DNA of 64,000 nt, taken from the NCBI RefSeq assembly GCF_030028105.1, contig NC_092378.1:100305731-100369730 (forward strand). The letters run 5' to 3'. Positions 22,153 to 62,885 of the stretch are shown here, piece after piece. Within the stretch, counting starts at the first letter, position 1. Each line of letters starts with the position of its first letter. This stretch comes from Mobula birostris (lineage: Eukaryota). Position numbers and translations under genes: made by a program. The notes under the pieces were generated by a model. That model made no database searches. It was not told the DNA's origin and saw only the letters and a list, made by a program, of their open reading frames with translations.

Positions 22153-22242
22153 CTGTATCTTGGAGATTAATTGTAACACCCGCTTTTCCAATTTTTGCTC
22201 TAATTTCATGGTGGCAAGAGCTGGAGACAAGCCATCATCCTT
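22153..22242 (-). CDS. PALB2: PALB2 coding exon 7 (human exon 6)
   Basis: KDDGLSP...VLQLISKIQ aligns to human NLQLVSELK. TAG acceptor (NAGNAG TAGAAG), GTTAGT donor, phase 0-0. Confidence 0.88.
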
Positions 22243-24845: not shown

Positions 24846-24929
24846 ATAGTGCAGGTTTCCAGCTTCTAATCATTTAGATTTAGTGTCTGTAGGAACCATA
24901 AAAGAACATCTTCAGAATTGTAACAGAAG

Positions 24930-28146: not shown

Positions 28147-28246
28147 CCACTGTCAGCTGCGATGTGCTCTGTTCTTCCTGCAGCCAGTTCTGATGTGCAA
28201 TGTTTTTTTTAACATGATTCTGTATCCTCTCAGCTTTCTCTGCACA
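28147..28246 (-). CDS. PALB2: PALB2 coding exon 3
   Basis: CAEKAERIQNHVKKNIAHQN aligns to human [20 protein letters not shown]. 100 nt, phase 0-1. Confidence 0.9.
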
Positions 28247-29905: not shown

Positions 29906-29929
29906 TTGAATATTTGACCCTTGCCAAAA

Positions 29930-30250
29930 GATACCTCTCAGCTAGGACGCACACACAGATAGGATTTTATCCATACTTCACCTCATAAACAATCTGATGG
30001 CCCCAATCCAACAGGAGTCAAATAGAAACAGCATCTGGGCTGTCTTTAAGCCCATCATAATTAGCTAAGACAATCTTGGCTCCCTTAACAGGAAACACCA
30101 CACCTAGTTTGATGAGAATGACCAAGAGATCCAGGAGCTAATTAACCACAAACACAAAGCATTGTTCAATTGAAACAATGGCTCTACAGGAACCCAAAGG
30201 TCAAGGCCGAACAAAAATCCCATGGTTTGGAGAACAAATGGTGGTTGGAA
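29930..30250 (+). mobile_element. RTE LINE fragment; other RTE-like pieces at 36960..37365 (+) and 51140..51650 (-)
   Basis: KH..FDENDQEIQELI motif. The BovB-like 3' motif GAAGGCAATGGCAAACCACT is at ~37268. Confidence 0.65.
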
Positions 30251-31252
30251 AGATAGTCATCATCTTTTTCCCACCTTGGAGAGTCTAAAACATAGGTTTA
30301 AGGTGAGAGGGGTGATATTTAAAGGATTTCTGAGGAGCAAAACTTTCATAAAACCTAGAAGTGAGTATACCTTATTAACCAATTTCTCAACCTGCCCTGC
30401 ACATTTAATGGTTTGAACACACCCATCTCAAGATCCCTCAGCTCCTGCAGCCCTTTAAGAACAATATCTTTTAGTCTATGTTGTCTCATCTCATTCTTCT
30501 TACCAAGATTCATGACTTCACCTTTCCCACATTTAACAAGACCTGCTCAGCATCTGCCTATTCTTTCAGCCTATTTGTAGACTGCTGCAATTTATCATTG
30601 TCCTTTTCTCTGTTCACATGCCCCAAGTATAGGTCATTAATATAGATCAAAGCAATGGCCTCAACTCCGATCCATGAAAAATGCTATTATTCCCCTTCCT
30701 CTGGTCTAAAATGAGAACAGCCATTCACCATGAACCCTACTGCCTGCTAGATAGCCAGTTTTACACCCAGCTTAACATCTCTTTCATGCACGTGCTTCAG
30801 CTTTGCTGATAAGCCTATTTTGAGGCATTCAAAGAAAAGCCTTCTTGAAGTCCACGTACATCAAGACAACCGTGTCACCATTGACTCTATCTGTTACGTA
30901 AATGAAAAATTCTAACAAGAGTTGAACACAAATTGAGCTTAATAAATCTGTGCTAGTTTGCTTTCATTTATTTTCCTCAAGGTGCCCATTAATCCTGTCC
31001 TAGATCAGTGTTTCTAAAAGCTTTCCGATCATTATTATTTTACTGGCCTATGGCTGCTGGGATTATTCTTAGTTCCTTTATTGAGGAATGAACATTTGCC
31101 ACCATCTGGTCCTCTGGTGCGATGCTGTGTTCAAAGAGCACCAGTCACTATACCCATGATTTTCTCTTGAACTTCTCTCAAAATCCGAGGATGCATCCCA
31201 CTGGTCCTGGTCAGTTACTTATTTAAGTTCAGTCAGCTTTATGACAGGTCTC

Positions 31253-31635
31253 GCCACACGGGGAGCACTGGACACCATAGACAGCCCTGGCAGATTCGTA
31301 GGTGAAGTGTTGCCTCACACGGAGGGACTGTTTGGGGCCCTGAATGGAGGGGAGGGAGGAGATTTATGGGTAGTTGCTGTCCTTTGGCCACTTGCAGGGA
31401 TAAGTGCCGAGTGCCCAGAGAGAGATTGGTGGGGAGGGACAAATGGACAAGGAAATCATGGAGTGAGTGATCCCTACAGAAAGCCGTGGGGGTGGGGGGA
31501 CAAATAGGTGCAGAGGAGTTTTGGTGATAGGATCCCTTTGGAGATGGTGGAAGTTGCAGAGACTCGTAGGGTGGTAGGACAAGAGGAACTCTATCAGTGT
31601 TAAAGTAGCGGGAAGATGGGGTGAGTGTGGATGTT
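31253..31635 (-). mobile_element. Penelope-like fragment
   Basis: Reverse complement of the region 35870..36250 (LSYHPTS..HLQRDP..GTYPC). Confidence 0.7.
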
Positions 31636-32004
31636 TTAAATCTTTTAATGTTATAACCATTATCTTCTAAATGTTCCCCAATTAAAAATTAAAGGCTTTA
31701 AGGTTTATTTTATTGTCAGCAAGTATGCATGCAGAATACAACACTGAGACTTGTCTTTTCCAGACAGCCATGAAATACAGAAAGAATATGGAGTTGTTCA
31801 ATGAAAAGATATCAAACACCCAGCACAAAAAAGAAAAGGAAACAAAAACTTGCAAACCCCAACCCCTCCCTCACACAAAAACTAACAGATTGTTCACCTG
31901 GAAAACGGCAGCTAGAACATCAAACCTCAAAACCCCAACTCCCTCCATCGCAAATAAAACTAACGTATCGGCCACTTGACCCAATTCATTCCACAGAAAC
32001 AGAC

Positions 32005-32565
32005 TCAGCACCATTGGTCTCTCCTTGTGGGCTTGGCATGTCATCAAAACCTTGACAAACTTCTATAGACGTGTGGTGCGAAGGGTGCCGAGCAGAAAAT
32101 CACACCAAAGGTAGTGGATTCAGCCCAGTACAGCACGGGTAAAATGATCCCAAACATTGAGCACATCTACATAAAATGTTGTCATAGAAAAGCAGCATCC
32201 ATCATGAAAGATCCTCACCTCCCCAGGCCATACTCCTTTCTCACTGCTGCCAGCAGGTAGAAGGTACATAAGCCTCAGGATTCGCACCACCAGGTTCAAG
32301 AAAAGTTACTACCCCTCAACCACAGGTTCTTCAGGGGATAACTACACTCATTTAAGGACTGTTTTGTTGATGCATGTTATATTATTTCATGCTCGTTATT
32401 TATTGCTATTTACTTATATCTGCAATTGCACATTTTCTTTACAGTTCCTGATTTCCAGTTTACATTTACTGTTCTATACATTTGCGAAGTGTGCCCGCAG
32501 AAAAAGAATCTCAGGGTTGTATGTGGTGACACGCATGTACTCTGATTAATACATTTTACTTTGAT
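32005..32565 (+). mobile_element. Rex1-type LINE 3' end, ~130 bp from the PALB2 exon 2 donor
   Basis: GMSSKTLTNFYR and AASIMKDPH..GHT..SLLP.GRRY motifs. Confidence 0.7.
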
Positions 32566-32695
32566 CTTTGGGACCAGAAACAAACTGCTCTAGAAAATCA
32601 CTTTGGGCACAAGATACCCCAGCGTTCGAGGATCGTAAAAGCAGCTCCTCAAAACCCTTAGATATCCCCGATTCCAAGAAAGAAATGTCATTCAC

Positions 32696-32755
32696 CTGCA
32701 ACTTATACACCGTCTTTGCATACTCTTTCTTCAGCAGGGCCAGTCGTTCCTTGAG
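32696..32755 (-). CDS. PALB2: PALB2 coding exon 2, BRCA1-binding coiled coil
   Basis: LKERLALLKKEYAKTVYKLQ aligns to human [20 protein letters not shown]. 60 nt. Confidence 0.95.
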
Positions 32756-32833
32756 CTGGGGCGAAAAGGAAGAATTAATGTCGGTCCTTTCTGTTTTACC
32801 GCGAGTATGATCTGGAGTTCGGCACTGGCTCAC

Positions 32834-32881
32834 CTGCTCTCTCGTTTCCAGGCTGAGGGGCCTTTTCAGACCGCTCTCCAT
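32834..32881 (-). CDS. PALB2: PALB2 coding exon 1 (an alternative in-frame ATG at 32899 would add MEDQLI)
   Basis: MESGLKRPLSLETREQ, 48 nt as in human MDEPPGKPLSCEEKEK. Donor CAG|GTGAG. Confidence 0.85.
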
Positions 32882-32899
32882 GATCAGCTGGTCCTCCAT

Positions 32900-33211
32900 C
32901 AACACAGGAACCCCAGACAAAGGCCCCGCCACTTCTGACCAATCAACGCCGGCCCTGCTCTCCCTCTCAGCCAATCGGAGGGAGCGGCGGGGAGGCCTGC
33001 TGATCATGGATGCCGCCGGACGTCACTCATGGAAATCCGCTCCGTTGTGAGGAAAAAGAATCGCTCAAGTATTGTCGAGTAATGTTCATCGACGTTGGCA
33101 GTACGCGAGTAAATTACAGGGAGGCGCGGTGTTTTCATCTTGGCCTCGCCTGCCCCGGAAGTGCTCGCTGTTCCGCTGGGCGTGAGTCGACAGCTGAGGC
33201 CGGAGGCGGCG
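32900..33211. promoter_or_regulatory. PALB2/DCTN5 bidirectional CpG-island promoter
   Basis: Divergent ATGs ~330 bp apart. CCAAT at 32939 and 32971, GC box at ~32922, GACGTCA at 33019, and ETS/GABPA site CCGGAAGTG at 33155..33163. Confidence 0.85.
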
Positions 33212-34839: not shown

Positions 34840-36830
34840 TACCAGGTAAATTTGAGAGCAGGGTGGAAGTCTCACTTGCATGGGTCCCAGCTATGCCTGC
34901 CTTTTCGTCGGCTATGTGGAACAATCTATATTCCAAGCCTGCACTGGTATCACTCCCGATCTTTTCCCGCGCTACATTGGCCACTGCATTGGTGCTGCTT
35001 CCTGCACCCATGCAGAGCTGAGCTCGTCGTCTTCACCCTGCCTGGAAATTTACCTGCTCCATTTCTGACACCTCAGAATCAGGTTTATTATCAACAGCAT
35101 GTGATGTGAAATTTGTTAATTTAGCAGCAGCAGTTCAATGCAATACATAATCTAGCTGAGAGCAAGGAAAAATAAATAAATAAAATAAAACATCCTAAAC
35201 AAGTAAATCAATTGTGTATATTGAACAGATTATTTTTAAAAATGTGCAAAGACAGAAATACTGTATATTAAAGAAAGTGAGGTAGTGTCCAAAGCTTAAA
35301 AGTCTATTTAGGAATCGGATGGCAGAGGGGAAGAAGCTGTACCTGAATCACTGAGTGTGTGCCTTCAGGCATCTGTATCTCCTACCTGATGGTAACAGTG
35401 AGAAAAGTGCATGCCCTGGGTGTTGAAGGTCTTTAATAATGGACACTGCCTTTCTGAGACACCGCTTTCTAAAGATGTCTTCGATACTTTGTAGGCTAGT
35501 ACCCAAGATGGAGCTGACTAGATTTACGACCTTCTGCAGCTTCTTTCGGCCCTGTGCAGTAGCCCCTCCATACCAGACAGTGATGCAGCCTGTCAGAATG
35601 CTCTCCACGGTGCAACTTTTCTCAATCTCTTTCTTTGGAAACAGCTTATCCATTGATGTCTATTATAAACCCACTGACTCTCACAGCTACCTGGACTATA
35701 CTTCTTCCCACACTGTTACTTGTAAAAATGCCATCCCCTTCTCTCAATTCCTCCGTCTCCGCTGCATCTGCTCTTGGGATGAGGCTTTTCATTCCAGAAC
35801 TTCTCTTCCTCCATCATCAATGCTGCCTTCAACTGCGTCTCTTCCATTTCATGCACGTCTGCCCTCACCCCATCCTCCCACCACTCCACCAGGGATAGGG
35901 TTCCTCTTGTCCTCACCTACCACCCCATCAGCCTCCGCATCCAGCACATAATTCTCTGTAACTTCCGCCGTCTCCAAAGGGATCCCACCACCAAGCACAT
36001 CTTCCCTCTCCCCCCCCCACTTCTACTTTCTGCAAGGATCGCTCCCTACATGACCTCCTTGTCCATTAATTCCTCCCTACTGATCTCTCTCGGTACTTAT
36101 CCTTGCAAGTAGAACAAGTGCTACACCTGCCCCTACACCACCTCCCTCACTACCATTCAGGGCTCCAAACCATCCTTCCAGGTGAGGCGACACTTCATCT
36201 GTGAGTCTGTTGCAGTCATCTACTATATCCAGTGCTCTCATTCTGGCCTCCTGTATATCAATCTGTCCGCCAGAAAAAGCAGGATCTCCCAGTGGCCACC
36301 CATTTTAATTCCACTTCCCATTCCCATTCTGACATGTCAGTTCATGGCCTCCTCTACTGTTGCGATGAGGCCACACTCGGGTTAGAGGAGCAACGCCTTG
36401 TATTCTATCTGGCTAGCCTCCAACCTGATGGAATGAACATCAATTTCTCAAACTTCTGGTAATGGTCTCCCCACCATTCCCCATTCTCAATTCCCAATTC
36501 TCATTTCTCTCTCTCACCTTATCTCCTTACTTGTCCATTATACCTCCCTGTGGTGCTCTTCCATGGGCTTCTCTTCTCTCCTATCAGATACCCCCTTCTC
36601 CAGCTTGTATCTCTTTCACCAGTGAACTTCCCAGCTCTTTACTTCACCCCTTCCCCCACCTCAATATCACCCATCACTATGTTTCTCCCTCCCCTCCCCC
36701 CACCTTCTTCCTCTGACTCCTCATCCTTTTTTCTCCAGTCCAGATGAAGGTTCTCGGACTGAAACATGACTGTACTCTTTTTCCGTAAATGCTGCCTGGC
36801 CTGCTGAGTTCTTCCAGCATGTGTGTGTTA
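34840..36830 (+). mobile_element. Penelope-like element (RT, GIY-YIG, terminal repeat), split by a Rex1 fragment at ~35073..35616 (-)
   Basis: MGPSYACLFVGYVEQ, YYKPTDSHSYLDYTSSH, AIPFSQFLRLR, LEEQRLVFYLASLQPDGMNINF. Degenerate hammerhead at 36737..36771. Confidence 0.85.
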
Positions 36831-38607: not shown

Positions 38608-39492
38608 ATGATCTATATTATTGAACTACGACTTTTACTTATTGAAAATGAATACCAGAACACGAGAAGCCAAAGAAGGGAAAGGATCCACCAGGAACGG
38701 AAAAAAAATGGTGATCCTGGAACTTCGAAGGATGCTCCGGTAACTATGGAACAAATGAAGAAACTTTTAAAAGATACAGTTAATCGAAGACTCACCGCAA
38801 TTGAAGAAGCGTTGAATTTGAGGAACGAAGTATCAAGAACATTCAGACGTGAAATCGACCAACATCAAGTCAGAATTTCGGAATTAGATGAAGATGGCCA
38901 TAAAAGAGAAAAAAGAATTGAAGCGCCTGAAAAATGTTTAACTTCGGTAACTCAGCAATTGGAACGCTATCAAGCTAAGACTATCGATCTTGAAAATTGT
39001 TCCCGACGACAGAATTTGCACTTAATTGGTTTCCCTGAGGATGTTGAGAAGGGAGATCGTACCAAATATTTTTCTAAATTGCTAATGGATGTGTTTGGCT
39101 CTGATATATTGGAAGAACCACTGATATTAGATTGTGCTCATTGTTCATTCCGTTTTAATCCGGAGAAATCGGCTAAACCGAGATCGATCATTATTCGATT
39201 TCATTATGTCCACGAGAAGGAACGAGTTATCCGAGCGGCTTGGAAGAAAGGTATGATCGAATTTCAAGATTTCAAGTTCAGAATTGTTGAAGACTACAGC
39301 CAAGTGGTTCTGAAAAAACGGATGGCTTTTAAACTTCAGATGGCAGAACTTTATTGTCGGGGCTATAAAATAGCGCTACTGTTTCCAGCCCGTATGAGAG
39401 TGGTTATGCCGGATAACTCGCGCAGTCTGTTTAAAAATCCGATGGAAGCCCAAAGTTTTCTCGATGATCTGCCTCCCTTTACAGAGGATTAA
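38608..39492 (+). CDS. L1 ORF1p (coiled coil, RRM, CTD); frame open, true start uncertain
   Basis: DLENCSRRQNLHLIGFPE, PRSIIIRF, EDYS, LFPARMRV. Confidence 0.8.
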   Translation: MIYIIELRLLLIENEYQNTRSQRRERIHQERKKNGDPGTSKDAPVTMEQMKKLLKDTVNRRLTAIEEALNLRNEVSRTFRREIDQHQVRISELDEDGHKREKRIEAPEKCLTSVTQQLERYQAKTIDLENCSRRQNLHLIGFPEDVEKGDRTKYFSKLLMDVFGSDILEEPLILDCAHCSFRFNPEKSAKPRSIIIRFHYVHEKERVIRAAWKKGMIEFQDFKFRIVEDYSQVVLKKRMAFKLQMAELYCRGYKIALLFPARMRVVMPDNSRSLFKNPMEAQSFLDDLPPFTED

Positions 39493-40202
39493 TCAATGTA
39501 TCATTTGGTTTTTTCTCTCGTCTCTGATTGTTTAGTTCGAGGTTTTGTTTTCTCGATCTGGCAGTGTATGTTCGTTTTATATAGTTAAATGATATTAGGC
39601 TTTTCTGTTAGTGATCCTGTATATCTTACTCTTAATACCTTTGGGTAGTTATTTAGTTATAAGTTTAATGATTGTTTTCTTTTCGAAATGTTACTAAAGT
39701 ATTATATTTTAAAATGGGGGATTGTTTTTTTCTTCTCCTCAGAATCCTTGCTGTTTCTTACGTCATTTCTGATCATTTATATTTGAAAAATTAATATAGT
39801 AATATGATTTAATGTTCGATGTTCTTTGAAATATGAGTAGCAAGGAACTTTTTAATGCTTTTAATCTCTTGTTATAGTTAGTTTTTACTTTTTTCCATAA
39901 GAGTGGTGTTTTTCTTGATAAACATATTTCTGTTGGGTCGCCCTCCGGAAAGATGGGGGTAGGTTTAGTCTTAGATTTAGCATTGACCACTGTCTGGCTT
40001 TTTTCTGGGGTTTTGTGGGAGGTGGGTGGTATTTTTCCTTTTATTCCTTTTTCATCTTTTCTTTTTAAACGGGCTGACCAGAAACTACTAAAATGTCTGA
40101 AATGTCGTAACTTGCGGTTCCTCTTTGAATCTTTTTTCCTCTTCCGGGGTCATGAGTCTCTACTCTGGTTAACCCTTTACATTCTTTATACTCAAGCTCA
40201 TT

Positions 40203-43200
40203 ATGATGGATAAGACCATTAATTTAGTTTCTTGGAATACAAATGGTTTAAACCACCTGGTTAAACGGAAGAAAATTTTTAAAGTATTCCACAGGATGAA
40301 TGCTCATATTATTTTTGTACAAGAAACTCATGTCCGGAAAGAGGATAATCAACATTTCTTTAGATTCTGGAAGGACCAACAGTATCATGCGAATTCACAA
40401 GCTAAAGTAAAAGGCGTATCTATATTTATAGATTCGTCAATTTCATTTACGCACTATGAGACGATTTCAGATTGTAATGGCAGATTTTTATTGATTACTG
40501 GCTTGCTATTTAACAAAAAAGTTGCCATGCTCAATGTTTATGCCCCAAATGTTGACTGTCCTGATTTTTTCAAGAATCTCCTCACATCTCTTCCCAATTT
40601 AAATGACTATATGCTGATTGTGGGTGGTGATTTTAATTGTTGTTTAAACCCTTTGATAGATAGATCTAAGTTTAATCACGCACTTCCGAATAAATCGGCT
40701 ACCCTTATTAACTCTTTTATGATTGACTCTGGAATCTCAGAAATTTGGAGATTCTTGTATCCAAATGACAAAGAGTTCTCTTTTTTTTCACATGTACATC
40801 AGCATTATTCAAGAATTGACTACTTTCTTATTGACTCTCGATTAATTCCTTTTGTTACGAGTTGTGAATATGATTCTATTGCTGTTTCTGACCATGCACC
40901 GTTGAAATTATTTATCAACTTAAGGGATATATCTACTAATTCTAGACAATGGAGATTTAATATCTCTTTGCTTCAAGATTCAGATTTCGTTAGGTTTATT
41001 GATGAACAGATTAAGTTTTCCTTGACAACGAATTCCACGGATGATATTTCCAGTGGGATCCTCTGGGATACTTTTAAAGCATATACTCGTGGACAAATTA
41101 TTTCGTACACTGCTGGACTAAAAAAGCGAACTAAGAAGGAAATACTTAACTGGTTGACAAGATTAAAGAAGTTGATAAGAAATATTCTATAGCTCCTAAT
41201 CAAGAACTTTATAAACAGAGTTGAACTTCAAATGGAACATAACCTTTTATTATCATCTTCAATTGAAAGTCAATTAACCAAAACTAAGAGTCAATTTTAT
41301 ATACATGGTGATAAAACTGGGAAACTTTTAGCTAATCAATTGAAATCGGCCTCGGTTAAAGGACAGATTCTTAAAATTCATAAACAAGATGGCACTTTTG
41401 ACAGTTGACCATGACGAGATTAATAAATCCTTTCAAGAATTTTATACCTCTCTTTATCAATCAGAATTTCCTGATGACTCCACTATAATGTATGAATTTT
41501 TTAAGAAATTGAATATTCCAAAATTATCATCTAATGAACGTTCAAAACTAGACGTACCTATTACTGTAGAGGAAATAAGGAATGCTATTTTTTCAATGAA
41601 TTCAGGTAAAGCACCTGGTCCAGATGGATTTACAGTAGAATTTTTAAAATTTTTCTGAACTACACTAACTCCTTGTCTATGTAGCATTTTTATGGATGCA
41701 GTTTCAATAGGTAAATTACCACAATCTTTCTATCGAGCTTCTATTTCCCTAATTCTTAAAAAAGATAAAGATCCTACTGAATGTGCATCTTATAGGCCTA
41801 TATCTCTGCCGAATGTTGATTCTAAGATATTTTTCTAAAATATTGGCAACGAGATTGGAGAATGTATTACCCCAGGTTATTTCTGCTAATCAAACTGGAT
41901 TTATTAAAAATCGTTTAGGAGATTAATGAATATCGTTTATACGCCTTCACCCAAAATTCCAGAATGTGTCGTCTCATTGGATGCTGAAAAAGCTTTTGAT
42001 AGAGTTGAATGGGTATATTTATTCAATACCCTTGAGAAATTTAATTTTAGTCCGATATTCATTTCCTGGATTAAACTGATATATTTTACCCCTTTGGCCT
42101 TGGTATTTACTAACAACCAAAGATCCCCCTTTTTTCATTTATTCCGTGGTACTATGCAGGGTTGCCCTCTTAGTCCCTTATTATTTGATACTGCCTTGAA
42201 ACCGCTAGCTATTGCCATTCGTGACTCCCCTAATATATTTGGTATTACCCGTGGAAATGTGTCTCATAAATTATCACTATATGCAGCTGATCTACTATTA
42301 TATATTTTTAACCCAGGAAAATCTATTCCGGCAGTATTAACTTTGCTTGCTCAGTTTAGTAGCTTTTCTGGTTATAAACTGAACCTAAGTAAGAGTGAAC
42401 TCTTTCCATTAAATATGCAGGTTCCTATTTATAGATATTCTCCATTTAGATTGATTACTGATTATTTTACTTATTTGGGAGTTAAAATTACTAAGAGACA
42501 TAAGGATCTATTCAATTTCAACCTTTTACCATTAATTAATCAGGTTAAACAACTGATTACTAAATGGTCCCCTTTGTCTCTATCATTGATTGGCCGTATT
42601 AATGCTTTTAAAATGATTATTTTACCCAAATTTTTATATTTATTTCAAGCGATACCGATTTTTATTCCTAAATCTTTTTTTGATATTATTAACTCTAAAA
42701 TTTCTTATATATGGCAAAATAGAAATCCCAGATTAAGTAAAAATTACTTACAGAAATCTAAGAAAGAAGGCGGTTTGGCATTGCCTGTCCTAAGATTTTA
42801 CTACTGGGCAATTAATATCCGATACTTAATATTTTGGACACAAGATTGGAATATAACTCCAAGCCCACGTTGGGTAAACCTTGAAGGCCATTCTGTACAA
42901 GGGTTTTCTTTAGCCTCCATTTTAGGAACTTCATTGCCTTTTGCACTATCTAAATTGAATAAACAAATTTTCAACCCTATAGTTAAACATACATTGCGAA
43001 TATGGTTTCAATTTCGTAAATTTTTTGGCCTGAATGAATTTATGTTATCAAGTCCTATTATATCTAAATTTTTTTTCCAACCTTCGGTAATGGACCAAGC
43101 CTTTTTATGTTTTCGCGATTTATTTTTGGATAACCGCTTTATGTCTTTCGAGCAGTTATCTGAGAAATTTGATTTGCCTAGATCCCATTTTTTTAGATAC

Positions 43201-43938
43201 TTACAAATAAGAAATTTTTTAAATATTAAGTTGCCTACCTTTTCGACTTCCAATCCTTCTGGCACTCTTGATAAAATTTTAGGCTTTAATCCTTTGCAGA
43301 AGGGATTAATAGCAATAATTTATGATATAATTATGAAATTACAGCCAGATATATCTGACAAAATTAAAAATGAATGGGAAAGGGAACTTCAACCTTCCCT
43401 ACCTACAGAGAAATGGGATAAAATTTTTCAATTAGTTAGTACTTCTTCTATATGTGCTAAACATACTTTAATACAATTTATAGTACACAGAGCTCATATG
43501 TCCAAAGATAAACTAGCTCGTTTTTATTCCCATATAAACCCTACTTGTGATAGATGTCACTCTGAAGTGGCTTCTTTAACTCATATGTTTTGGTCCCGTC
43601 CTCTTTTGGAAAAATACTGGAAAGACATTTTTGACATTATTTCCACAGTTCTATGTTTCGATTTAAAACCCCATCCTATTACGGCAATCTTTGGATTGCC
43701 AATGGTAGAACGTAGATCTTTGTCTTCAGCCTGTTGAATGATAGCTTTTGTTACTTTAATGGCGAGAAGATCTATTTTGTTGAACTGGAAGGAAACTAAT
43801 CCTCCAACTACATTCCAATGGTTTTCTCAAACCATATTAAGTTTAAATTTAGAAAAAATTAGAAGTGATATTTTTGACCCTTTAGTTAAATTTGAAGAAA
43901 CTTGGAAACCTTTTATGCAACATTTTCACATGATGTAA
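40203..43938 (+). pseudogene. L1 ORF2 (APE, RT, CCHC), disrupted
   Basis: SWNTNGL, VQETH, GGDFN, SRIDY, SDHAP, KAPGPDG, LDAEKAFDRV, QGCPLSP. YADD is mutated to YAAD. Frameshifts near 41150 and 41830, stops at 41656 and 43735. Confidence 0.92.
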
Positions 43939-45347: not shown

Positions 45348-45491
<144 letters not shown>

Positions 45492-47125
45492 TAATCACTC
45501 AGTCTGTAATTGTACAGTATGTTGACCATATGTAGGAGGCAGGAACTTTCAGCAGAGTTCAGTGACTGTCTGAGCTTTGGAAATGTGTTGGGGATTGTAT
45601 GTGGAAATGCTGTGGTTGGAGGCGTGGGGTATCAGTTAGGAATGAAGAAGCTGGATAAATGCTTTGTGGGTTTAGCAAGTGTAATTCTGGATGCTGTGCC
45701 TTTTAATGTGCCTTTCAACCCAGCAAATGTCCAAAGACAGCGCTCACTTTTAACATATGGAAAATAATTAAGTATTTGTTAAATGTTATATAATTTGTAG
45801 CGTCTGTTTTGTATTCGAGGAGGTGTACTGGGGTCTTTCCAGAATAACAATGAAAGTTCGCTTATTGTTTTATGTCGCTATTGGACATTAGTTTAACCCC
45901 TACCAGCATGCGGTAGCCTCTTTGACAGGCAGCTCTTCAAGCATCCTAAACCGTCATTCCCCTTGGTGCACGGTTAACAATTAATAGAACAATAAATATT
46001 GACTGGTCTTTATTTATTGTCATGGGATTGTTGAGTTTTTTTCCTCCAGGGTAAGGGAGTCTGAAACTAGAACTGGCCTTCAGTTCTTTATTTCCTCTTG
46101 AATGGAGCACACTCCCTTGGCATTGCATTGAATCTCTAGCCCTGGGTGGAAGAACCCCTTTCAAATTGCTCTGTCATTTTTAATCAACTATCTCTAGATC
46201 TTCTTTTACCTCTTTTAGAAATGTCAGAGTTGTGTGGCATGGACCAAGTCATGCATGCTGACCGAGTAGCCTCCCTGAGTAGTCCCATCTGCCTTTCCAA
46301 TCAATTTGTATCGAAATGTCTTTTAAATGTTATAATTGTACCCACCTCTAAAGCTTCCTCTGGCAGCTTGTTTCATATATGTACCACCCTCTGTGTGGTG
46401 CAAGTTGCCCCTTGGGTCCTTTCTAATTCTTTTTCCTCTCACTTTAAAATTATGACCTCTAGTTTCAGACTCCCTTACCCTGGAGGGGAAAAAAACTAAC
46501 CACCCCCTTATCTAGTTCCATCATTACATTATAAACTTCTATAAGCCCATACTTGGCCTCCTGCTCTCAGCCTACTTTGCCTCTCCTTATAACTCAAGCC
46601 CTCCAGTCCAAGTAACATCCAGTGAATCTTCCCTAGCCCCTTCTGCAGCTTAATTACATCCTACCTATAGCTGGGTGACCAGAACTGCACACAATACTTC
46701 CAAGATTGGCCTCACAAATGTCTTGTACATGTTTAACATGACTTTCCAAATGCTTTATTTGGTGACCTGACTGATGAAGAAAAGTGTGCCAAATACCTTA
46801 ATGACCACCCTGCCTAACTGTGTTTCTGCTTTCAGGGAACTATGTACCTGTACCACTACATCACTCTCCATCAGAGCCCTGTGCCCACTAATTTGTATTT
46901 GCTCTTTGAATTATTTGTATCAAACCCTCTGCACTTTTCAGTATTAAACTTAACTTGCCATGCCACAAGTCTATTTGTATCTTCTTTGAGTCTTGTATAC
47001 AGTGGATTCTGGTTAATTGGAACACTTTGAGACCAGTACATTTTGGCCTATGTAAGTGGCTGTCCCAATTAGCTGGTTTCATGGCATATTTTTTTAAAAC
47101 TACCGTTTAACTGAATAACAAGTTA

Positions 47126-47726
47126 CAGGTGTGCACTGCTTAACATCCATTCGGACAACGTCCGATCGCATATATGATCGTAGTCCCGATTGGAGAATGT
47201 GACATAGCGGACGTAACCAATCTTGTGTATCACGCATCTCTTGAGTGTAGTAGCGTTATCTCTCTGTTTAATTTTCTTTGGAAAATATTACCAGTGCATC
47301 ATGGCTTCCAAACGCAGCAAAACCACTCCTAGTGATAGCAGCAGCAAGAGGCAAAGGAAAAGTATTGATTTGGAAGTGAAACAAAAGGTTATTAAACAAT
47401 ATGAAGGTGGAAAACCAGTGAATGCTATTGCTCGGGATTTAGGCATGTTGCACTGGACAATCACGACGATCCTGAAAAACAAAGAAAAAATTCTCGAAGC
47501 TGTTAAGGGATCAGCCGCACTGAAAATTACAAGGCTCACAAAAATGCGAGGGGGACCTATATCGGATATGGAGAAATTGCTGATGACATGGATTTAGTCA
47601 GTACAGGTACACTACAGTACTCCATGTAGGTTTGCTAAGTATATAATATGGTGTTCGCACAACGTCCAAATCACATAATGTCCGATTTCACAGAATGTAT
47701 CGTGGACGTTAAGCAACACATACCTG
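47126..47726 (+). mobile_element. Tigger-type deletion derivative, copy A, encoding only the N-terminal psq-HTH/CENP-B region
   Basis: TA..CAGGT TIRs. MASKRSK..RKSIDLEVKQKVIKQYEGG..IARDLGM..MEKLLMTWI. Confidence 0.88.
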
Positions 47727-48095
47727 TATGTAGTTAATGAAATGTGGAACAAATCAGAACACTACAAATGCTACTACAGGTCTACGAAGCTGTGTATTAG
47801 TTTCTAATAGTTATCAACAGAGGAACTCAGCCTGTGTATGCTGCTCTGTAAATGAACAAAATTAATACTACATGCAGATGATGGACTGCCTTCATATAAT
47901 GCTTTCAATGATCACTTCTCCATAATCTTCATAGTGCCTAACTTGTTGAAGTAGTGAAATTGTTTCATTTATATTCATGGCTCTTTCTGGCACCTCCAAG
48001 CCTGAATCCTTGAAACTGCAGTGAGCATAACAGTTCTGAATTGTCTTACTGCTTATTTCTCGCCAACACATGCAACTCACACTATTTTAAAAACT

Positions 48096-48316
48096 CATCA
48101 AAGTTGCTGGTGAACGCAGCAGGCCAGGCAGCATCTCTAGGAAGAGGTGCAGTCGACATTTCAGGCCGAGACCCTTCGTCTAGTCCTGATGAAGGGTCTC
48201 GGCCTGAAACGTCGACTGCACCTCTTCCTAGAGATGCTGCCCGGCCTGCTGCGTTCACCAGCAACTTTGATGTGTGTTGCTTGAATTTCCAGCATCTGCA
48301 GAATTCCTGTTGTTTG
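48096..48316 (+). mobile_element. 221-bp palindromic Penelope terminal insert with a 14-bp TSD
   Basis: TSD CTATTTTAAAAACT at 48082..48095 and 48317..48330. Arms 48096..48180 and 48188..48272. Confidence 0.9.
48182..48217 (+). ncRNA. Minimal type I hammerhead ribozyme motif (Penelope type)
   Basis: AGUC-CUGAUGA-AGGGUCUCGGCCU-GAAAC-GUC-GACU. Stem I is AGUC/GACU, the core is intact, stem III is a loopless palindromic ACGU, and cleavage is predicted after 48213. Activity untested. Confidence 0.75.
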
Positions 48317-49066
48317 CTATTTTAAAAACTGTTCGCTCTAAGCACAGTGTAGCGTCTAACAGCCACACAAGTGCACGTGACTGACGCTAGTTGGAAACTG
48401 TTCTGCAACAGTCTCCTGTCCCAATTAAATAGTGTAGTGTCCCAAATAAATGAAGGGAATCCTGGCTATTTTCTTGATTAGTTTTTGTTCTTTAAGAGGT
48501 GTCCAATTAACCAGAATCCACTGTACAAAGTTCTGCTGGAAATAATGCGCTGACACTCAATCCAAGGCAGTAACATACTGAAAAGGAATGGTTAAAATTT
48601 TGAGGAGCATCACTACACCAACGATTCCAAAAGTCAAACTGCTTATTCTCTGTTACTTAATCAATTTTCTGTCCATATCATGAGTCCCATTAATTCCATG
48701 ATCTTCAATCCTGATAACTTGTCTGTTATGTGCATTTTAGCAAAAGCCTTTCGAAACTTCATTGAAGTCAACAATTTGCCTTTAACAAATCCAGGCTCTC
48801 TCTTCTTAATCAATCCATACACATCCAAATGACTGATAATTCTGTTGTTAATTGTTTCCCCATCAGAGAGGTGAAACTGATTGGTTTATGACTGGTGGAT
48901 TTATTCCTGCACTTTAATAAGGATGTAACATGTAAAATTTTCTATCCATTGGTTCTAGCCTTAAATCTCGAGAGGTTTGTAAGTTTGTGGGTAGGACCTC
49001 TGCAGTTTCCTCTCTCAGCAGCCGAGGATGATTTATCCATTTTAAGTGCAGTTAGCTGTTCTAGTA

Positions 49067-49672
49067 CAGGTATGCGTTGCTTAACGTCCACGATACGTTC
49101 TGTGAAATCAGGCGTTACGTGATTTGGACGTTGTGCGAAAACCATATTATATACTTAGCAAACCTATATGGAGTACTGTAGTGTACCTGTACTGACTAAA
49201 TCCATGTCATCAGCAATTTCTCCATATCCGATATAGGTCCCCCTCGCATTTTTGTGAGCCTTGTAGTTTTCAGTGCAGCCGATCCTTTAACAGCTTCGAG
49301 AATTTTTTCTTTGTTTTTCAGGGTCGTCGTGATTGTCGAGTGCGACATGCCTAAATCCCGAGCAATAGCATTCACTGGTTTTCCACCTTCATATTGTTTA
49401 ATAACCTTTCGTTTAACTTCCAAATCAATACTTTTCCTTTTGCTTCTTGCTGCTGCTATCACTAGGAGTGGTTTTGCTGCGTTTGGAAGCCATGATGCAC
49501 TTTACGGTAGTATTTTCGAAAGAAAATTAAACAGAGAGATAACGCTACTAAACTCAAGAGTTGCATGATACACGAGATGGGTTACGTCTGCTACGTCACA
49601 TTCTCCGATCGGGACTACGGACGTATATGCGATCGGATGTTGTCCGAATGGATGTTAAGTGGTGCACACCTG
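49067..49672 (-). mobile_element. Tigger-type deletion derivative, copy B, inverted relative to copy A
   Basis: TA flanks at 49065-66 and 49673-74. Peptide near-identical to copy A. Confidence 0.88.
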
Positions 49673-49946
49673 TATCTACACTTTATCAACGTTTCCTTCA
49701 TCCAGAATCTCGATGAGGGAAGATTCTCATCAAGAGAATCATGATAAAGATTTACCATGTCACAAGCCTGTTTCTATCATCTTTGAGCTGTGTATACAGT
49801 GGATTCTGGTTAATTGGAACATATTGGGACCAGTACATTTTGGCCCATGTAAGCGGCTGTCCCAATTAGCTGGTTTCATGAAATTAAAAAAGCTACCATT
49901 TAACTGAATAACAAATTATATATTTAAATGAAATACAAAACAAGTT

Positions 49947-50142
49947 GGAGAAGACAGGAGGGGGAGGGATGGAGCCAAGAGCTGGGCAGGTGATTGGCAA
50001 AAGTTCTTAGCTCCATCCCTCCCCCTCCTGTCTTCTCCTATCATTTTGGATCTCCCCTCCCCCTCCCACTTTCAAATCTCTTACTAGCTCTTCCATCAGT
50101 TAGTCCTGACGAAGAGTCTCAGCCCGAAACGTGGACTGTACC
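49947..50142 (+). mobile_element. Penelope terminal fragment with a 5' fold-back and a hammerhead variant
   Basis: Inverted repeat 49947..49983 / 50002..50038. AGTC-CTGACGA..GAAAC-GTG-GACT at 50102..50137. Confidence 0.75.
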
Positions 50143-51674
50143 TTTTTGAGAAATTGTGTGGCTTGTTCGAATTGTGTAGTTAATGCAAAAGTTGTGTTGT
50201 TAAAATGCTTCATTGATATAAGGAGCATTGGGACGTCCCAGATGGTAAACTTTTCTAGTGTAAATTAATGCTGGTAATATCAAAAGGTTGAGGATTTATT
50301 TGTGTATTAAACTGTCATTTTAATCTTGCCTGAATCCTGAAAAGTGGACTGATACTGACCTCACCATGGTGCCTGATCTACTTTCAAGTTTATTTCTGTT
50401 TCGATCTTGATTGTATTAAATTATACAATCCACACCTGTTCATTTAAACTTTTTTGTGCTCAAATATTGACCTTTCAATCAAATCAGTCAGTTCAAGTGA
50501 AATAAACACCATGTGCATACAATTTCTATTTTTAAAAAAAACTAATTTCAGAAAAGAACATCTTTGTATTGGACATTGAACTGATTTCATGATCCTTTTC
50601 CTAATATGAAATAAATATATGAAAAAGAAAAATGCTCAACTTTGCACTGGATAAATGCACTTAGATAATAGCTGTTTTCCACGAACTCTATTATAGCTTA
50701 ATCGGAATGGTGCAGTGTAGTATATAGAACTGCAGAGGGCATTGCTAAGAGAATCACACTGCACTTTTTAAGTGCTATTGAACAGTACAGAATCAATTCT
50801 AATGCATCAATTATTTTCCCAGTATCATGCACATAGCAAGTGATGAGTTATCCAGCACAATTTTCCAGCATAAATGGCTATTGTCTGTCACTCACAACCA
50901 AAACTTCATCTACAACCTCCCACATTTTCTATTCAAACACCATTTAAACATACACACTTAATGGCAGAAAACTTTCAAAGACAGCTCTTAACCTCACTGG
51001 ATACACTTCCCACACCTTACAAGATGCTGCAAGTTTTAGTTAGCGGTAGCATAGTATTTAATAGTGTAAAGCTCCATTTCATAAATGGAGTGAAGGCAAC
51101 ATTTTTTCCTCCATTGTTTTTATGGTGTTTTCTGGAGGACAGAACATCAGTATCTTCCTGCCGTGCTTTTTAAATGGCTATCCTGATGACTCTCCTGCCA
51201 CGGAGGCAAATCTAATAATAAGGATGACATGGACCAATATCTTTACATCCCACTCAGTAAATGTAAAAGAGTTTTTTTTCTCCTACAAGCTACCCCTCCT
51301 TCAAAGCAGCCACTGTCTGGTTGTCATGGGGAGCCCGTGCTATGGCTGCAGTGCTGTTCCTTCCTCTTAGGAAACCCTTCCGAACTGAGGATGAATTATA
51401 TCCGCTGGTTCTGAAAATGACTTCTGAGTTGTTTGGAAACCACAGACTACCGCAGGTTGGGTAGGTGGTGGCTGACTTGGAGGAGAGTTGGATAATTTGA
51501 GAGGTGATCCACTCCTTCCATTGCTAATGAAGAGCCTTTCTGTGCTCTTGACCTCCTACAGGTTCTTGCCTCCTGCTCCATTTTGAGCAGTCATGGGCCA
51601 GAGGTTCCCAGAATGCAATTCTTCAGGGAATCTTTGAGCACAACCTCGATTTACTTATTTATTTTTTACACAAG

Positions 51675-51840
51675 AGATTCTGCAGATGCTGGAAGTAAAG
51701 AGCAACACACACAAAATGCTGGGGGAGGTCAGGCAGCATTTATGGAAATTAATAAATAATGGATGTTTAGACTCTTCATCAGGACTGGAAAGGAAGGGGG
51801 AAGAAGCCAGAATAATATGGTGGGGAGAGGGGAAGGAGTG
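51675..51840 (-). mobile_element. Penelope terminal fragment with a deleted hammerhead
   Basis: Minus strand CCAGTCCTGATGAAGAGTCT followed by the AAATGCTGCCTGACC tail. Confidence 0.65.
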
Positions 51841-53481
51841 AATCTTTTCCTCTGTCCATCTGATAATTTCTTCCTATAAGAGAGTTCAAAGTAGAAAAAG
51901 AGTGTTCAAAGAGTGTTTTAGGACGCTGGTGTCAGACATGTGGTCTGCGGTGAATTTCATCCTTTGCCAAGATTTGAAAGTGGTGGTGCATTTTTCCCAG
52001 GGTTTTGTCATGAAGACAGTATTGTGCAAAGGTCAGGCACCTTCAATTTTTAAATATAAATTTTGTTTTAGATGTTTATATTTTCTTCTCTATTAATATG
52101 TCAGTAGAAAAGAGCAAGTTTTAGATTTCCAAACACTTATTTTCCAAAAAAATTAAATGTTACGTGCATTTTTTTGTATTTTAGCCCAGTGATGATTAAA
52201 CAAAGGTAACAAGCAGGATGACATACTCAATGACATAATGAGTTGAATGAACTAAACTGATTAATTGAAACAGAAACGGTTGAAGAAGGAATCAAACTCT
52301 GTGATGGACAACCAAACTGAAAGGTGTGGGTGGGGCAGATGTGACAGGTTAACCTTCAAATCATCAATTCTTACACCATGGCAAGAGTGAACATAGCAAC
52401 AAGACACAAGGTAGTCATCCTGTATCAGCAAAGTCTCTCCCAAGCAGAAATTCTGTGAAGATGCGCTGTCCAAGCTCTTCTGAAGAAGCACCAAGAAACG
52501 GGCAAGGTTGAGAACTAGAAACGCAGTGATCGGCCATGAAAACTGTGTACAACAGTTGAGAGATGTATCAAACTGATGGGAAGAAGTCGAGCACTGTTGT
52601 CAGCTCTGAACTTTCAGAAACCCCCCCCTGGAACCCAAGTACACTCCTGTACAGTCCAGAGAAGTCTTGTCAGAAGTGGTCATCTTGGAAGAATTCCTGT
52701 CAAAAAGCTATTCCCCTGAAGTGGAAACAAAGCCAAGAGACTCAACTATGTACAAAAACATAAGACTGTGGTGCTGAACAGTGGTAGCAAGTGCTCTGGA
52801 CTAAAGGCTGATTTATACTCGTGCGTACTAGCTTACGCCGTAGCCTACGCAAGTGGGCTACGCCGTTGTGAGCATTTATACTTGTGCGTTGGTGTGTCTG
52901 CAGTTCACCGCCAAAACGCTAGTTGGCGATGGAGTTTCTACGCCACTGTGTTGAGTTTCTTCATGTTGAAACTCAACATGAAGAAACTCAAACTTCAAAC
53001 AATGGTAACTGAAACTGAAGGAGGGTGAATTTTCTGTGCTTGTCTGGCCACTGAGAGACATGGACGAGGAAATGCATTTCAAATATTTTCGGATGTTGGC
53101 AGGTAGATTTGACGATTTGGTTCATTGTCTCCAACTATTTATTTCGCATCAGTGTACGCACAGTATACTCAGAGACTGGCAATCACCATTCGAGTTTTAG
53201 CTTCAGGTGGAAGTCAACAGGCTGTAGCAGCTAGCTACAAACTGGCGTCAAGCACAGGGTCCTCCATAATTTCAGAGGTCTGTAAAGCCTTATGGAAAGC
53301 ATTGCAGCCAGAGTTCCTTCCCTGCCCTTCAGTTGCCCAATGGGAAGCTATTGCAGTGTAGGAGGAAATGCGATGCTACCAAGTGGACCAATCACAGTTG
53401 TTTCGGTCTGTGTCGCCATGACGCATAGTTATATTTTGGGAGAGGTGTGCGTTAGGGTACGGCATAGGGTTTGGTGTAGAG

Positions 53482-54260
53482 CAGGGGTCTCCAACCTTTT
53501 TTTGCCCTGCGGACCGGTTTAATATTGACAATATTCTTGGGATCAGCCGACGGGGGTGGGCGGGGGGTGGAGGGGGTGATGTTCAAGTAGGGTTAAACTC
53601 ACCTCAACATGTCTTTTACAGTTAGGGTTGCCAACTTTCTCACTCCCAAATAAGGGACAAAAGTAGCAGTCAAATCCCGGGACACTTTACCCCAGGGAAG
53701 ACTACCATGACCATGAAGCCTTGCGCGGGCACCTGTGTGCGCATGCGTGACGTGCGCGTACGTGCCGATTTTTTTTTTCCCCCACAAATTTGTTTTGCCT
53801 TCATCTTCCCGACTATACTGTACATACGTTATTTCTACTTTATATAGGCTGTGTATTTATCGTATCATTCTTGCTATTTACTGTATGTTAGTGTTATTTA
53901 TTTTCAGTTTTATGTGTTATTTGGTATGACTTGTTAGGTTATTTTTTGGGTCTGGGAATGCTCAAAAAATTTTCCCATACAAATTAATGGTAATTGCTTC
54001 TTCGCTTCACGCCATTTTGGCACGAAAGGTTTCATAGGAACATTCTACCTTAGCGTGGGAAATACAGGACAAACCAATGTAGCTCAATATACGGGATGTC
54101 CCGGCAAATACGGGACATTTGGCAGCCCTATGTTCAAGTTCAGCAGTGCGTGACAGGGAATGAGGAAAGGTGCAGCTGACTCATATCGTTTCCTCATGGC
54201 CCGGTAGCACATGCTTTGCGGCCTGGTACCAGTCCGCAGCCCGGTGGTTGGGGACCGCTG
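53482..54260. mobile_element. hAT (Charlie-like) MITE
   Basis: 8-bp TSD GTGTAGAG. TIR CAGGGGTCTCCAACC / GGTTGGGGACCGCTG. Confidence 0.9.
53588..54130. mobile_element. Inner hAT (TAGGG-terminal, Blackjack-like) MITE
   Basis: 8-bp TSD TGTTCAAG at 53580..53587 and 54131..54138. TAGGGTT(GCCA) / TGGCAGCCCTA ends, with repeated ATACGGGA subterminal motifs. Confidence 0.8.
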
Positions 54261-55284
54261 GTGTAGAGTACAGTATAGGGTTCGCGGCTATGCTGTACCT
54301 ACGGCATACATTTGACGCACAAGTATAAATCAGCCTTAAGTCAAAATTTGAAATTTTTTGCTCAAATAGGAGGCAGTTTGTCCATAGAAGAGCTGGAGAG
54401 CGCTACACAGAAGAGTGTCTGCAGCCAACAGTGAAGCATGACAGAGGCTCCCTGCAAGTTTGGGTCTGTTTCTGCAAATGGAGTCTGCGATCTAGTCAGA
54501 ATTAATAGAACCCTCACTGCTGAGAAGTACAAGAAAATTCCCCTCCATCATGCAATACTATCAGGGAGGCATCTGATGGGTCCCAACTTCATTCTACAGC
54601 TGGATAATGACCCCAAACACACATTCATAAATAACTATCTTCAGTGAAAGGAGACAGAAGTTCTACAACAGATGGTATGGCCTCCACAGAGCTCTGATCT
54701 CAACATCATTGAGACTGTCTGGGACTACCAGGAGTGACAGGAGCAAGTGAGGCAACCAAAGTCTTCAGAAGAACTGTGGCAAGTTCTCCAAGATGTGTGG
54801 AACAACCTGCCAGTCAATTTTTTTATAAAATTGTACAACAGTGTACCTAAGAGAATTGATGCAGTTTTAAAAACAAAAGGTGGTCACATCAATTACTGAT
54901 TTGATTTATTTAAAACTATGTACTGTTTTTATAGTAATATTTTTGATATTTAGAAACTTTTCATTATTTTTTAAAGCCTCTTTGGTTTACAGATTTTTTT
55001 TTACATGTGCTTAAGACTTTTGCACAGTACGGTATCTTTTGTCAAAGGATACTGTTGTACAGCAGAGGTGAATAGTAGAGGAAATTTTACTCGGGAGTTT
55101 TGAGTACAAGGCCCATTCTTGCATATGCTTTTGATTGGCGCTCAAGTAAAAGCAACATGGTCTGCATCTTGACCTTTGAGATTTGTTTGTTTCAGTTGTT
55201 GTTACTGCAATAAAAATGGGTGATATTAACTGTCTTAGATGAAATAATGGACATGTTTGTTTTCCACCATCTATCTCTCCATAG

Positions 55285-61283: not shown

Positions 61284-62885
61284 TCAGAATCAGGTTTATT
61301 ATCACCAGCATGTGTTTTGAAATTTAACTTAGCAGCAACAGTTCAATGCAATACATAATGTAGAAGTTTTTTTTAAAAAAAAGATAAAAATAAGTAAATC
61401 AAGCACAGTATATGCATATTGAATAGATTAAAAATTGTGCAAAAACAAAAATAATATGTTAAAAAGGTGGGAAGGTGTTCATGGGTTCAATGTCCATTTA
61501 GTAATCGGATGGCAGAGGGGAAGAAGCAACACTCACAACACGCTGGAGGAACTCAGTAGGTCGGGCAGCATCCGTGGAAAAAGATCAGTCAACGTTTCGG
61601 GCCGGAACCCTTTGTCCGAGGGGAAGAAGCTATTCCTGAATCACTGAGTGTGTGCCTTCAGGCTTCTGTATCTCCAACCTGATGGTAACGGTGAGAAAAG
61701 GGCATGCCCTGTGCGTTGGAGGTCCTTAATAATGGCTTTCTGAGACACCATTCCTTGAAGAAGTCCTGGGTACTTTGTAGGCTAGTATCCCAAGATGGAG
61801 CTGACTAAATTTACAACCCTCTGCAGCTTCTTTTGGTCCTGCAGTAGTGCTCACATACCAAACAGTGATGCAGCCTGTCAGAATGCTCTCCACAGTACAT
61901 CTATAAAAGTTTTTGAGTATTTTTGTTGACGTACCAAATCTTTTCAAACTCCTGATGAAATATAGTCACTGTCTTGCTGCCTTTATGGCTGTGTCGATAT
62001 GTTTGGACCAGGTTAAGTGCTCAGAGATCTTAACACCCAGGAACTTGAAACTACTCACTCTCTCCACTTCTGATTCCTCTATGAGGATTGGTATGTGTTC
62101 CTTTGTTTTACCCTTCCTGAAGTCCACAATCAGCTCTTTCATCTTACTGACGTTGAGTGCCAGGTTGTTGATTTGACACCACTCCACTAGTCAGCATATC
62201 TCACTCCTCTTCGCCTTCTCGTCACCACCTGAGATTCTACCAACAATGGTTGTATCATCAGCAAATTTATAGATGGCAGTTGAGCTATGCCTAGCCACAC
62301 AGTCATGGGTGAAGAGAGAGTAGTGCAGTGGGCTAAGCACACACTCCTGAGGTGCACTAGTGTTGATCGTCAGCGAGGAGGAGATATCACCAATCTGCAC
62401 AGACTATGGTCTTCTGCTTGGGAAGTCAAGGATACAATTGGAGACAGTGGTACAGAGGCCCCAGTTCTGTAACTTACCAATCAGGATTGTGGGAGGGTTG
62501 GTGTTAAAGCTGAGCTATAGTCAACGAACAGCATCCTAACATGGGGTGTTTGTATTGTCTAGGTGTTCTAAGGCCACGTGAAGAGCCATTAAGATTGCAT
62601 CTGCCATTGACCTATTGTAGCAATAGGCAAATTGTAGTGGGTTCAGGCCCTTGCTGAGGCAGGATTCAATCTAGCCATGACCAACCTCTCAAAGCATTTC
62701 ATCACTGTAGATGTGAGTGCTACTGGGCAATGATCAGTGAAGCAGCTCACACTATTCTTCTTATAATTGTTGCCTTTTTGAAGCAAGTGGGAATTTCCAC
62801 ACACAGTAGTGAGAGGTTGAAAATGTCCTTGAATACTCCTGCTGGTTGGTTGGCACAAGTTTTCAGAACCTTACCAGGTATTCTT
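61284..62885 (-). mobile_element. Rex1/Babar LINE RT and 3' end
   Basis: PVALTSTVMKCFERLV, APQECVLSP, KFADDTT, KELIVDFRK, CTVESILTGCITVWY. Confidence 0.88.
61528..61617 (-). mobile_element. 90-bp Penelope terminal insert with a 13-bp TSD, inside the Rex1 copy
   Basis: TSD GAGGGGAAGAAGC at 61515..61527 and 61618..61630. Minus strand AGGGTTCCGGCCCGAAACGTTGACTG plus the GATGCTGCCCGACC tail. Confidence 0.85.

Follow-up and report, generated by a model that had tools for sequence, protein, structure and literature searches.

A palindromic, hammerhead-bearing insertion in intron 4 of DCTN5 in Mobula birostris: a probable 5′-truncated Penelope-like stub

Within intron 4 of DCTN5 in Mobula birostris lies a short noncoding insertion that folds into a near-perfect hairpin and carries a complete hammerhead ribozyme core. 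The question it raises is whether this is a small mobile element in its own right, with a ribozyme masked by its own antisense arm, as a sequence-only reading had proposed, or the remnant of something larger. In the current study, we examined the insertion together with the 64,000-nucleotide stretch of DNA that surrounds it (the window). The reading that we prefer, with a probability of roughly 0.8, is that it is a heavily 5′-truncated, dead-on-arrival insertion of an EN+ Penelope-like element (PLE), in which the 3′ end of the pseudo-LTR (pLTR) and its tail are joined head to head to an inverted, tail-less copy. The stub is of a kind already described and is an ordinary member of a very abundant family.

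The window also contains what is presumably a PALB2-like gene (ca. 22000-33020, minus strand; so labeled from a ChAM-like motif), which we take to lie head to head with DCTN5 (33190-56850, plus strand). Exons 1, 2, and 6 of DCTN5 we take from reading frames and motifs judged by eye. Three DCTN5 exons on the plus strand, at ca. 37.75, 45.36, and 55.29 kb, were identified through Pfam family PF21711. Given these positions, with the splice donor at 45474 and the acceptor at 55284, the stub lies in intron 4 and its complete motif is in sense, as the sequence-only reading had it. The features on which the argument turns are the following.

45474..55284, plus strand: DCTN5 intron 4, the host intron (donor 45474, acceptor 55284)
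46998..48525, no strand assigned: older TA-flanked repeat, the insertion target (24-bp terminal inverted match; high flank depth in public contigs)
48082..48095, no strand assigned: left target site duplication (TSD), 14 bp, AT-rich, including ATT; present once in paralogs of the host repeat
48096..48180, minus strand: inverted, tail-less, 5′-truncated pLTR copy, 85 bp, starting within the hammerhead core at GACGA
48179..48187, plus strand: head-to-head junction and 7-nt loop (from alignment and the contigs of run X9)
48181..48272, plus strand: sense 5′-truncated pLTR copy, to the tail-less end (from alignment)
48182..48217, plus strand: minimal type I hammerhead (from a descriptor match and folding)
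48273..48316, plus strand: one-sided PLE "tail," 44 nt, shared with the copy at 51786-51671; the family recurrently ends at 48317
48317..48330, no strand assigned: right TSD (direct-repeat match)
34874..36830, plus strand: degraded, older relative of the parent PLE, with part of a reverse transcriptase (RT), a thumb region, and a GIY-YIG-type C terminus, followed by a pLTR

The target repeat, whose 24-bp inverted ends lie at 46998-47021 and 48502-48525, appears to be a pogo/Tc1-mariner-type MITE. Inverted around the stub are two 5′ fragments of a CENP-B/pogo-like transposase (47121-47728 and 49065-49677; 613 bp, 93% identical; Pfam CENP-B_N), which together might pair into a longer duplex within this intron. 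For a neighboring repeat, the best named protein relatives come from rays and sharks, which makes a cartilaginous fish the most likely host. Elsewhere in the window, a near-full-length, frameshifted L1-type LINE with ORF1, endonuclease, and RT frames lies in sense in DCTN5 intron 3 (38608-43737, plus strand), and a Tc1-like transposon with 216-bp inverted ends (94% identical) and a transposase frame at 4117-4635 occupies 3895-5498; both labels were assigned by eye.

The layout of the stub is TSD, inverted 85 bp, sense 92 bp, tail, and TSD. The perfect duplication first reported was confirmed: CTATTTTAAAAACT at 48082-48095 recurs at 48317-48330 with 14/14 positions identical, the 14-bp word has just 2 occurrences in the 64-kb window, and a match at a fixed place would arise by chance with a probability of about 2e-8. 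Its edge is ambiguous by 1 bp, since many family copies (among the public contig rows listed) match through C48317. The two arms (48096-48180 and 48188-48272, 85 bp each) are inverted around the 7-nt loop at 48181-48187 and differ at exactly 3 pairs of positions (48126/48242, 48158/48210, and 48178/48190), in agreement with the earlier count of about three. All 3 mismatches are CG versus TG in the orientation of the element; CpG positions make up 12 of the 85, so that the probability of all 3 falling there is 0.002, and 0 of the 73 other positions differ. The 44-nt tail (48273-48316) is found on the right side only. The predicted minimum free energy of the hairpin is −187.7 kcal/mol (z = −26.5), and 0 of 200 shuffled sequences were equally stable. 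These features support a single insertion event with a TSD. A DNA transposon (MITE) origin for the stub itself was discarded on account of the 44 nt that follow the right arm, the 14-bp TSD, and the sequence, which is that of a PLE pLTR.

The hammerhead core said to begin in the loop is indeed complete. A minimal-hammerhead descriptor, applied to both strands of the 64 kb, gave 1 match, at 48186, with a G·U pair at 10.1-11.1. Stem I is AGUC/GACU (48182-85/48214-17); CUGAUGA occupies 48186-48192 and is followed by GAAAC-GUC, with the predicted cut after 48213; stem II is formed by 48194-97/48202-05; and stem III is loopless and palindromic. The conserved CUGANGA, GAAA, and UH of the core, stems I and II, and the palindromic 15.2-16.2 are all present in the stub, and the sequence points to a minimal hammerhead of the dimer type, as had been proposed. 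In the favored register of stem II, an extra unpaired A follows the core and 10.1-11.1 is a G·U wobble; an alternative register places A-U there. The stub lacks the G10.1-C11.1 pair, which is described as highly conserved in PMC4209133, where it stands outside that paper's descriptor. Both arms share the T, and two older copies in the window have a C at this position. Two kinds of search had been suggested for the motif, and these diverged: the descriptor found it, and Rfam returned no hammerhead family, either among 69 matches at E ≤ 5 or, with the 60-nt core as the query, among 2 matches at E ≤ 10. Subthreshold Rfam matches to microRNA hairpins reflect the hairpin and were rejected. Two degenerate patterns of the hammerhead region gave 0 matches in metagenome, prokaryote genome, and viral contigs. 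We also rejected a second working ribozyme on the minus strand; the inverted copy begins inside the core at GACGA and is therefore missing C3-U4 as well as the 5′ strand of stem I.

That the motif belongs to a PLE pseudo-LTR follows from the copy at 36737, which is the 3′ end of the RT/GIY-YIG-bearing element at 34874-36830. This element is interrupted by another repeat at ca. 35077-35617. Its pLTR ends in the same hammerhead-bearing motif, ca. 80% identical to the stub, and the frames of the element align with full-length proteins that combine RT and GIY-YIG, among them P0093 and P0111 (PF00078 and PF01541) and also P0061. The PLE origin previously suggested for the stub is thus borne out. 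The family assignment rests on this homolog search: Pfam found nothing in the 6 frameshifted PLE frames (10 frames were scanned), and the stub itself matched 0 of 120 proteins. At only about 80% identity, the coding relative indicates that the direct parent subfamily is not among the copies in the window. BLAST and nhmmer identified 6 other copies of the hammerhead region in the window and 1 faint match. Their 5′ ends are scattered, lying within the core and ca. 20, 55, 100, more than 130 nt, and ca. 1.9 kb upstream. The copy at 61612, which starts inside the core, has its own 13-bp TSD and no inverted arm. The tail is present in one copy (51786-51671), and others stop before it. All of the other aligned hammerhead copies are broken and older (67 to 85% identity), including the sense copies at 36737 and 50101, which lie unmasked in DCTN5 introns.

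Two of these relatives are stubs in themselves. The region 49947-50146 holds another pLTR stub of a PLE, older than the first and likewise with an inverted junction (hairpin 49947-50038); the inverted arm of this stub ends within the pLTR and not at the usual end of the family, its sense copy stops just past the broken hammerhead, and no TSD of at least 6 bp was found around it. The other, at 61515-61630, is an 89-nt minus-strand stub with a 13-bp TSD inside another repeat, a paralog of which (at ca. 35325) shows the empty site. Its 5′ end is at about the same position in the core as that of the inverted arm of the main stub.

We turned to public contigs for the wider family. The contig sets of 4 of 24 public runs (X2, X6, X9, and X10, of which X9 is RNA by guess) were aligned to 47750-48700 at 90% likeness. 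The figures given here are those of the best-supported rows listed, beyond which there were 870 joints, 519 between-letter rows, 2266 loose ends, and 170595 pieces, and joints are visible only if they land inside the query, which introduces a bias. The family is very abundant: summed depth in X2 was 1.7 to 6.3 million over the element versus 9 to 13 in the unique right flank, figures that do not represent copy number. Among the rows listed, loose ends accumulated at 48096 (117 in X2 and 89 in X6), at 48100 (88 in X10), and at 48317 (151 in X2, 121 in X6, and 35 in X9), and we take 48096 and 48317 to be the tail-less and tailed ends of the family, respectively. A further cluster of listed loose ends lies at 48182 (198, 203, 153, and 48 across the 4 runs), from which they run into the pyrimidine-rich parent pLTR in 4/4 runs. 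In run X9, 15 of the listed contigs match from 48179 on and are pyrimidine rich upstream; it is possible that the junction at 48179-48180 involved a 2-nt microhomology, if the source carried a TCTAG variant.

The inner joints tell a different story from the outer ends. Those at 48126>48191, 48141>48203, 48180>48214, and 48180>48269, among the rows listed, differ from the junction of the stub and from one another. The exact center of the stub has no further copy in the 64-kb window, and the joints listed were varied, with a few of them apparently multicopy. The proposed mini-retroelement with fixed boundaries is not supported by these results; inner junctions are many and outer ends are shared in the contig rows listed, and within the window the 5′ ends are scattered, with ca. 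1.9 kb of coding sequence upstream in one copy. Among the rows listed, the joint 48120>48182 nevertheless reached a depth of 131.9 in X2 and 51.9 in X6, and 48136>48182 was present in 4/4 runs; both land on the first base of stem I, and such recurrence fits either a stop hotspot or amplification of a unit. Short head-to-tail repeats of the hammerhead core occur in other copies (X10 joints 48210>48179, 48210>48184, and 48212>48182), and the X6 joint 48180>48214 describes a palindrome whose sense arm starts exactly at the ribozyme cut site.

The same contigs contain the empty site. The element is missing from paralogs of the target repeat in 4/4 runs (48067>48321), and one X9 contig passes from 48070 to 48317 with 39 letters between and a single 14-mer, which at an empty paralogous site supports a true TSD. 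The flanks in X2 match the window throughout (0 differences over 115 and 226 nt), and those in X6 differ at 2/109 and 7/201 nt. One X6 contig (record 19) crosses the center of the stub over 87 nt with 6 differences and 1 gap, and it may be an ortholog or a similar paralog.

How does the stub compare with known systems? The published PLE unit (PMC3846280 and 10.1101/2021.04.23.441226) has a one-sided tail of 30 to 40 bp and a TSD of 8 to 10 bp; that of Penelope (PMC3846280) consists of direct pLTRs next to which lies a shorter pLTR in inverted orientation, with a tail of 31 bp on one side and a TSD of 9 bp, and junction palindromes are read there as a result of self-priming. Heavy 5′ truncation, inverted adjacent copies, and the 30- to 40-bp tail are likewise described in 10.1101/2021.04.23.441226 and PMC8969392. 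The stub resembles EN+ PLE units (Adineta Pen2a and Pen3a in PMC3846280; Craig et al., 10.1101/2021.04.23.441226) in its head-to-head inverted 5′-truncated copy, its tail at one end, a TSD of a kind that varies in length, and its palindromic junction. However, there is no ORF left in the stub, and its pLTR pieces therefore meet directly as one 85-bp hairpin; its 44-nt tail and 14-bp TSD are at the long end of the range. In this regard, the stub shares with the family the RT/GIY-YIG-coding relative at 34874-36830, truncation at the 5′ side combined with fixed 3′ ends (5′ ends scattered across the window copies; contig ends at 48096 and 48317), an adjacent inverted truncated copy with a one-sided tail (85 bp; 44 nt versus the published 30 to 40), and a TSD at an AT-rich site (14 bp; single in the target-repeat paralog).

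Among minimal PLE hammerheads, PMC4209133 reports thousands of lone motifs from truncated PLEs, some in close opposite-strand pairs. These resemble the stub in that respect and in their short stem I, the extra nucleotide between 9 and 10.1, and the loopless palindromic stem III; the stub, however, has G10.1·U11.1, and its opposite-strand copy is cut within the core. According to the same paper, with which PMC6765202 agrees, minimal PLE hammerheads are inactive as monomers and weak as dimers. A mechanistic parallel is offered by the Anolis carolinensis element Poseidon PAc (Frangieh et al. 2024, PMC11167929), a lizard element tested in vitro. Its protein cuts and extends both strands and prefers ATT, RT is initiated at two internal positions on either side of the tail, the template is uncleaved RNA that is needed up to +172 of the ORF, and the hammerhead cleaves only with the protein. 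The two starts bounding the tail, the priming on both strands, the ATT target, and the uncleaved template would all have their counterpart in the stub. Animal non-LTR retrozymes (10.64898/2026.07.22.740005) are also noncoding, PLE related, and equipped with a type I hammerhead; in that text, they are defined as tandems, being head-to-tail arrays with at least 2 complete ribozymes, whereas the stub is one head-to-head pair with one complete motif. With 1 descriptor match in 64 kb and arms that are head to head, we do not classify it as a retrozyme. PMC2837043, PMC544870, and PMC12910113 added little on the stub. Published titles on chondrichthyan PLE hammerheads, palindromic pLTR stubs, PLE hairpin small interfering RNAs, and intronic orientation bias included none for the family of the stub, in a search made mostly at the title level and thus no proof of absence.

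Taken with these precedents, the stub would presumably have arisen as follows. The PLE RT/GIY-YIG protein would nick both strands of the AT-rich site, 14 bp apart, and reverse transcription from the two internal starts of the family would yield a tailed end (48316) and a tail-less end (on the 48096 side). Both cDNAs would then halt early, either within the hammerhead or a little 5′ of it, and be joined head to head. Equally, one cDNA could have folded back on itself and been cut at the tail boundary, with the same product. Because the arms extend 33 and 26 nt 5′ of the cut site, the template RNA would have been uncleaved. By analogy with the anole element, whose protein requires sequence past the tail, a lone stub, which has none, should be unable to move again. 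The description of the insertion as recent holds in a relative sense only; the arms differ at 3 CpG-type sites. If the 3 differences represent CpG decay after insertion, the age could reach the order of the divergence of organisms A and B; the insertion could be younger should the arms instead derive from two template molecules. An editing origin for these differences was dropped, as they have no consistent direction.

Folding predictions (nearest-neighbor, with proteins ignored) bear on the fate of the ribozyme. The hairpin is favored over the ribozyme fold by 50.8 to 52.1 kcal/mol, stems I and II have a pair probability of 0.0 in the full element, and the two folds are, as had been anticipated, mutually exclusive. 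Transcript prefixes ending at 48200 to 48240 placed the hairpin over the motif in 5/5 cases. The notion of a self-masked ribozyme stands as a description of the fold and implies no switch; the masking arm is transcribed before the motif, so masking is constitutive. In the DCTN5 pre-mRNA, the inverted arm would be made first and would pair with the emerging motif, and the ribozyme should not fold. With the hairpin ahead by ca. 51 kcal/mol and forming while the motif is transcribed, the ribozyme is, on this modeling, most likely an inert passenger, and the stub would be a neutral intronic hairpin that is spliced out with the intron. Even without the arm, the open-core fold is predicted for ca. 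0.4% of molecules when 48181-48316 is folded and for 2% when 48181-48220 is, and the stem III self-duplex is worth only −3.1 kcal/mol. When two motifs were cofolded without constraints, a different intermolecular fold resulted, and we set this approach aside, as it does not model the dimeric ribozyme. Action of ADAR or Dicer on the 85-bp duplex is plausible; the A>G changes seen in the contigs (5 in X9, 6 in X6, and 3 each in X2 and X10) come from a mixture of paralogs and are uninformative on editing.

An unlikely alternative is that the stub is a nonautonomous, palindromic PLE derivative with fixed boundaries, reinserted as a unit by a PLE protein acting in trans. The clean TSD around a noncoding unit would suit such an element, as would the joints 48120>48182, 48136>48182, and 48126>48191, which among the rows listed recur or have several times the single-copy depth. 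Moreover, PMC3846280 allows that pLTR sequences can suffice in cis for mobilization in trans, and nonautonomous PLE derivatives exist (10.1101/2021.04.23.441226 and 10.64898/2026.07.22.740005). We find this difficult to reconcile with inner junctions that vary while outer ends are shared (rows listed) and with the scattered 5′ ends in the window. The 85-bp duplex would also bury the pLTR end, and the anole template needs RNA beyond the RT starts, which, if the requirement transfers, a lone stub could not supply. Hardly credible to us is a palindrome formed after insertion, when a plain stub underwent fold-back repair or was locally inverted, or an assembly artifact. Long palindromes are hard to assemble, and no contig among those listed spans the whole element; however, the TSD coincides precisely with the outer limits of the two arms, the tail-less end at which the inverted arm stops is one that recurs in the family, 3 sites distinguish the arms, and insertions with this layout have been published.

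One might also suppose that the stub is a selected or conditional regulator, in which the arm disarms an intronic ribozyme until editing or unwinding releases cleavage, or in which the duplex feeds small RNAs against PLEs. An intact sense core within a near-perfect 85-bp duplex invites this idea, which draws further on the broken motifs of the unmasked sense copies at 36737 and 50101 and on the depletion of tandem retrozymes from Xenopus introns (10.64898/2026.07.22.740005). Yet all of the other copies are broken whatever their orientation, at 67 to 85% identity, and age therefore explains the pattern. Together with the poor activity of minimal PLE hammerheads as monomers or dimers (PMC4209133), the need of the anole hammerhead for its protein (PMC11167929), and an open-core fold in ca. 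0.4% of 48181-48316 molecules freed of the arm, this makes regulation very improbable, and we return to the truncated, head-to-head PLE insertion as the reading of choice.

As a single locus, the stub carries little weight, since the repeat family to which it belongs is very abundant. Taken together, stubs of this type preserve in the shortest form the way in which PLEs make inverted ends, whether by two-strand priming or by self-priming. A broader and very improbable conjecture is that chondrichthyan PLE RT stops preferentially at the first base of stem I and so mass-produces hammerhead-centered palindromes, the arm disarming the ribozyme and thereby allowing sense copies to persist in introns, with the genome-wide duplex RNA silencing the family or, once edited, releasing cleavage. 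Were palindromic copies sense enriched in introns relative to unpaired young copies, there would for the first time be a hint of host transcripts being cleaved by PLE hammerheads in vivo.

Finally, the AG of stem I was considered as a cryptic splice acceptor and rejected for the stub, where it is buried in the hairpin and where the upstream pyrimidine fraction is 0.56, compared with 0.67 to 1.0 in 5 relatives. In Drosophila virilis, Penelope has an intron that ends at helix I, according to PMC4209133. In the parent-type copies at 36737, 20708, 13383, and 51786, the stem I AG follows a polypyrimidine tract (0.83 to 1.0) and resembles a 3′ splice site.
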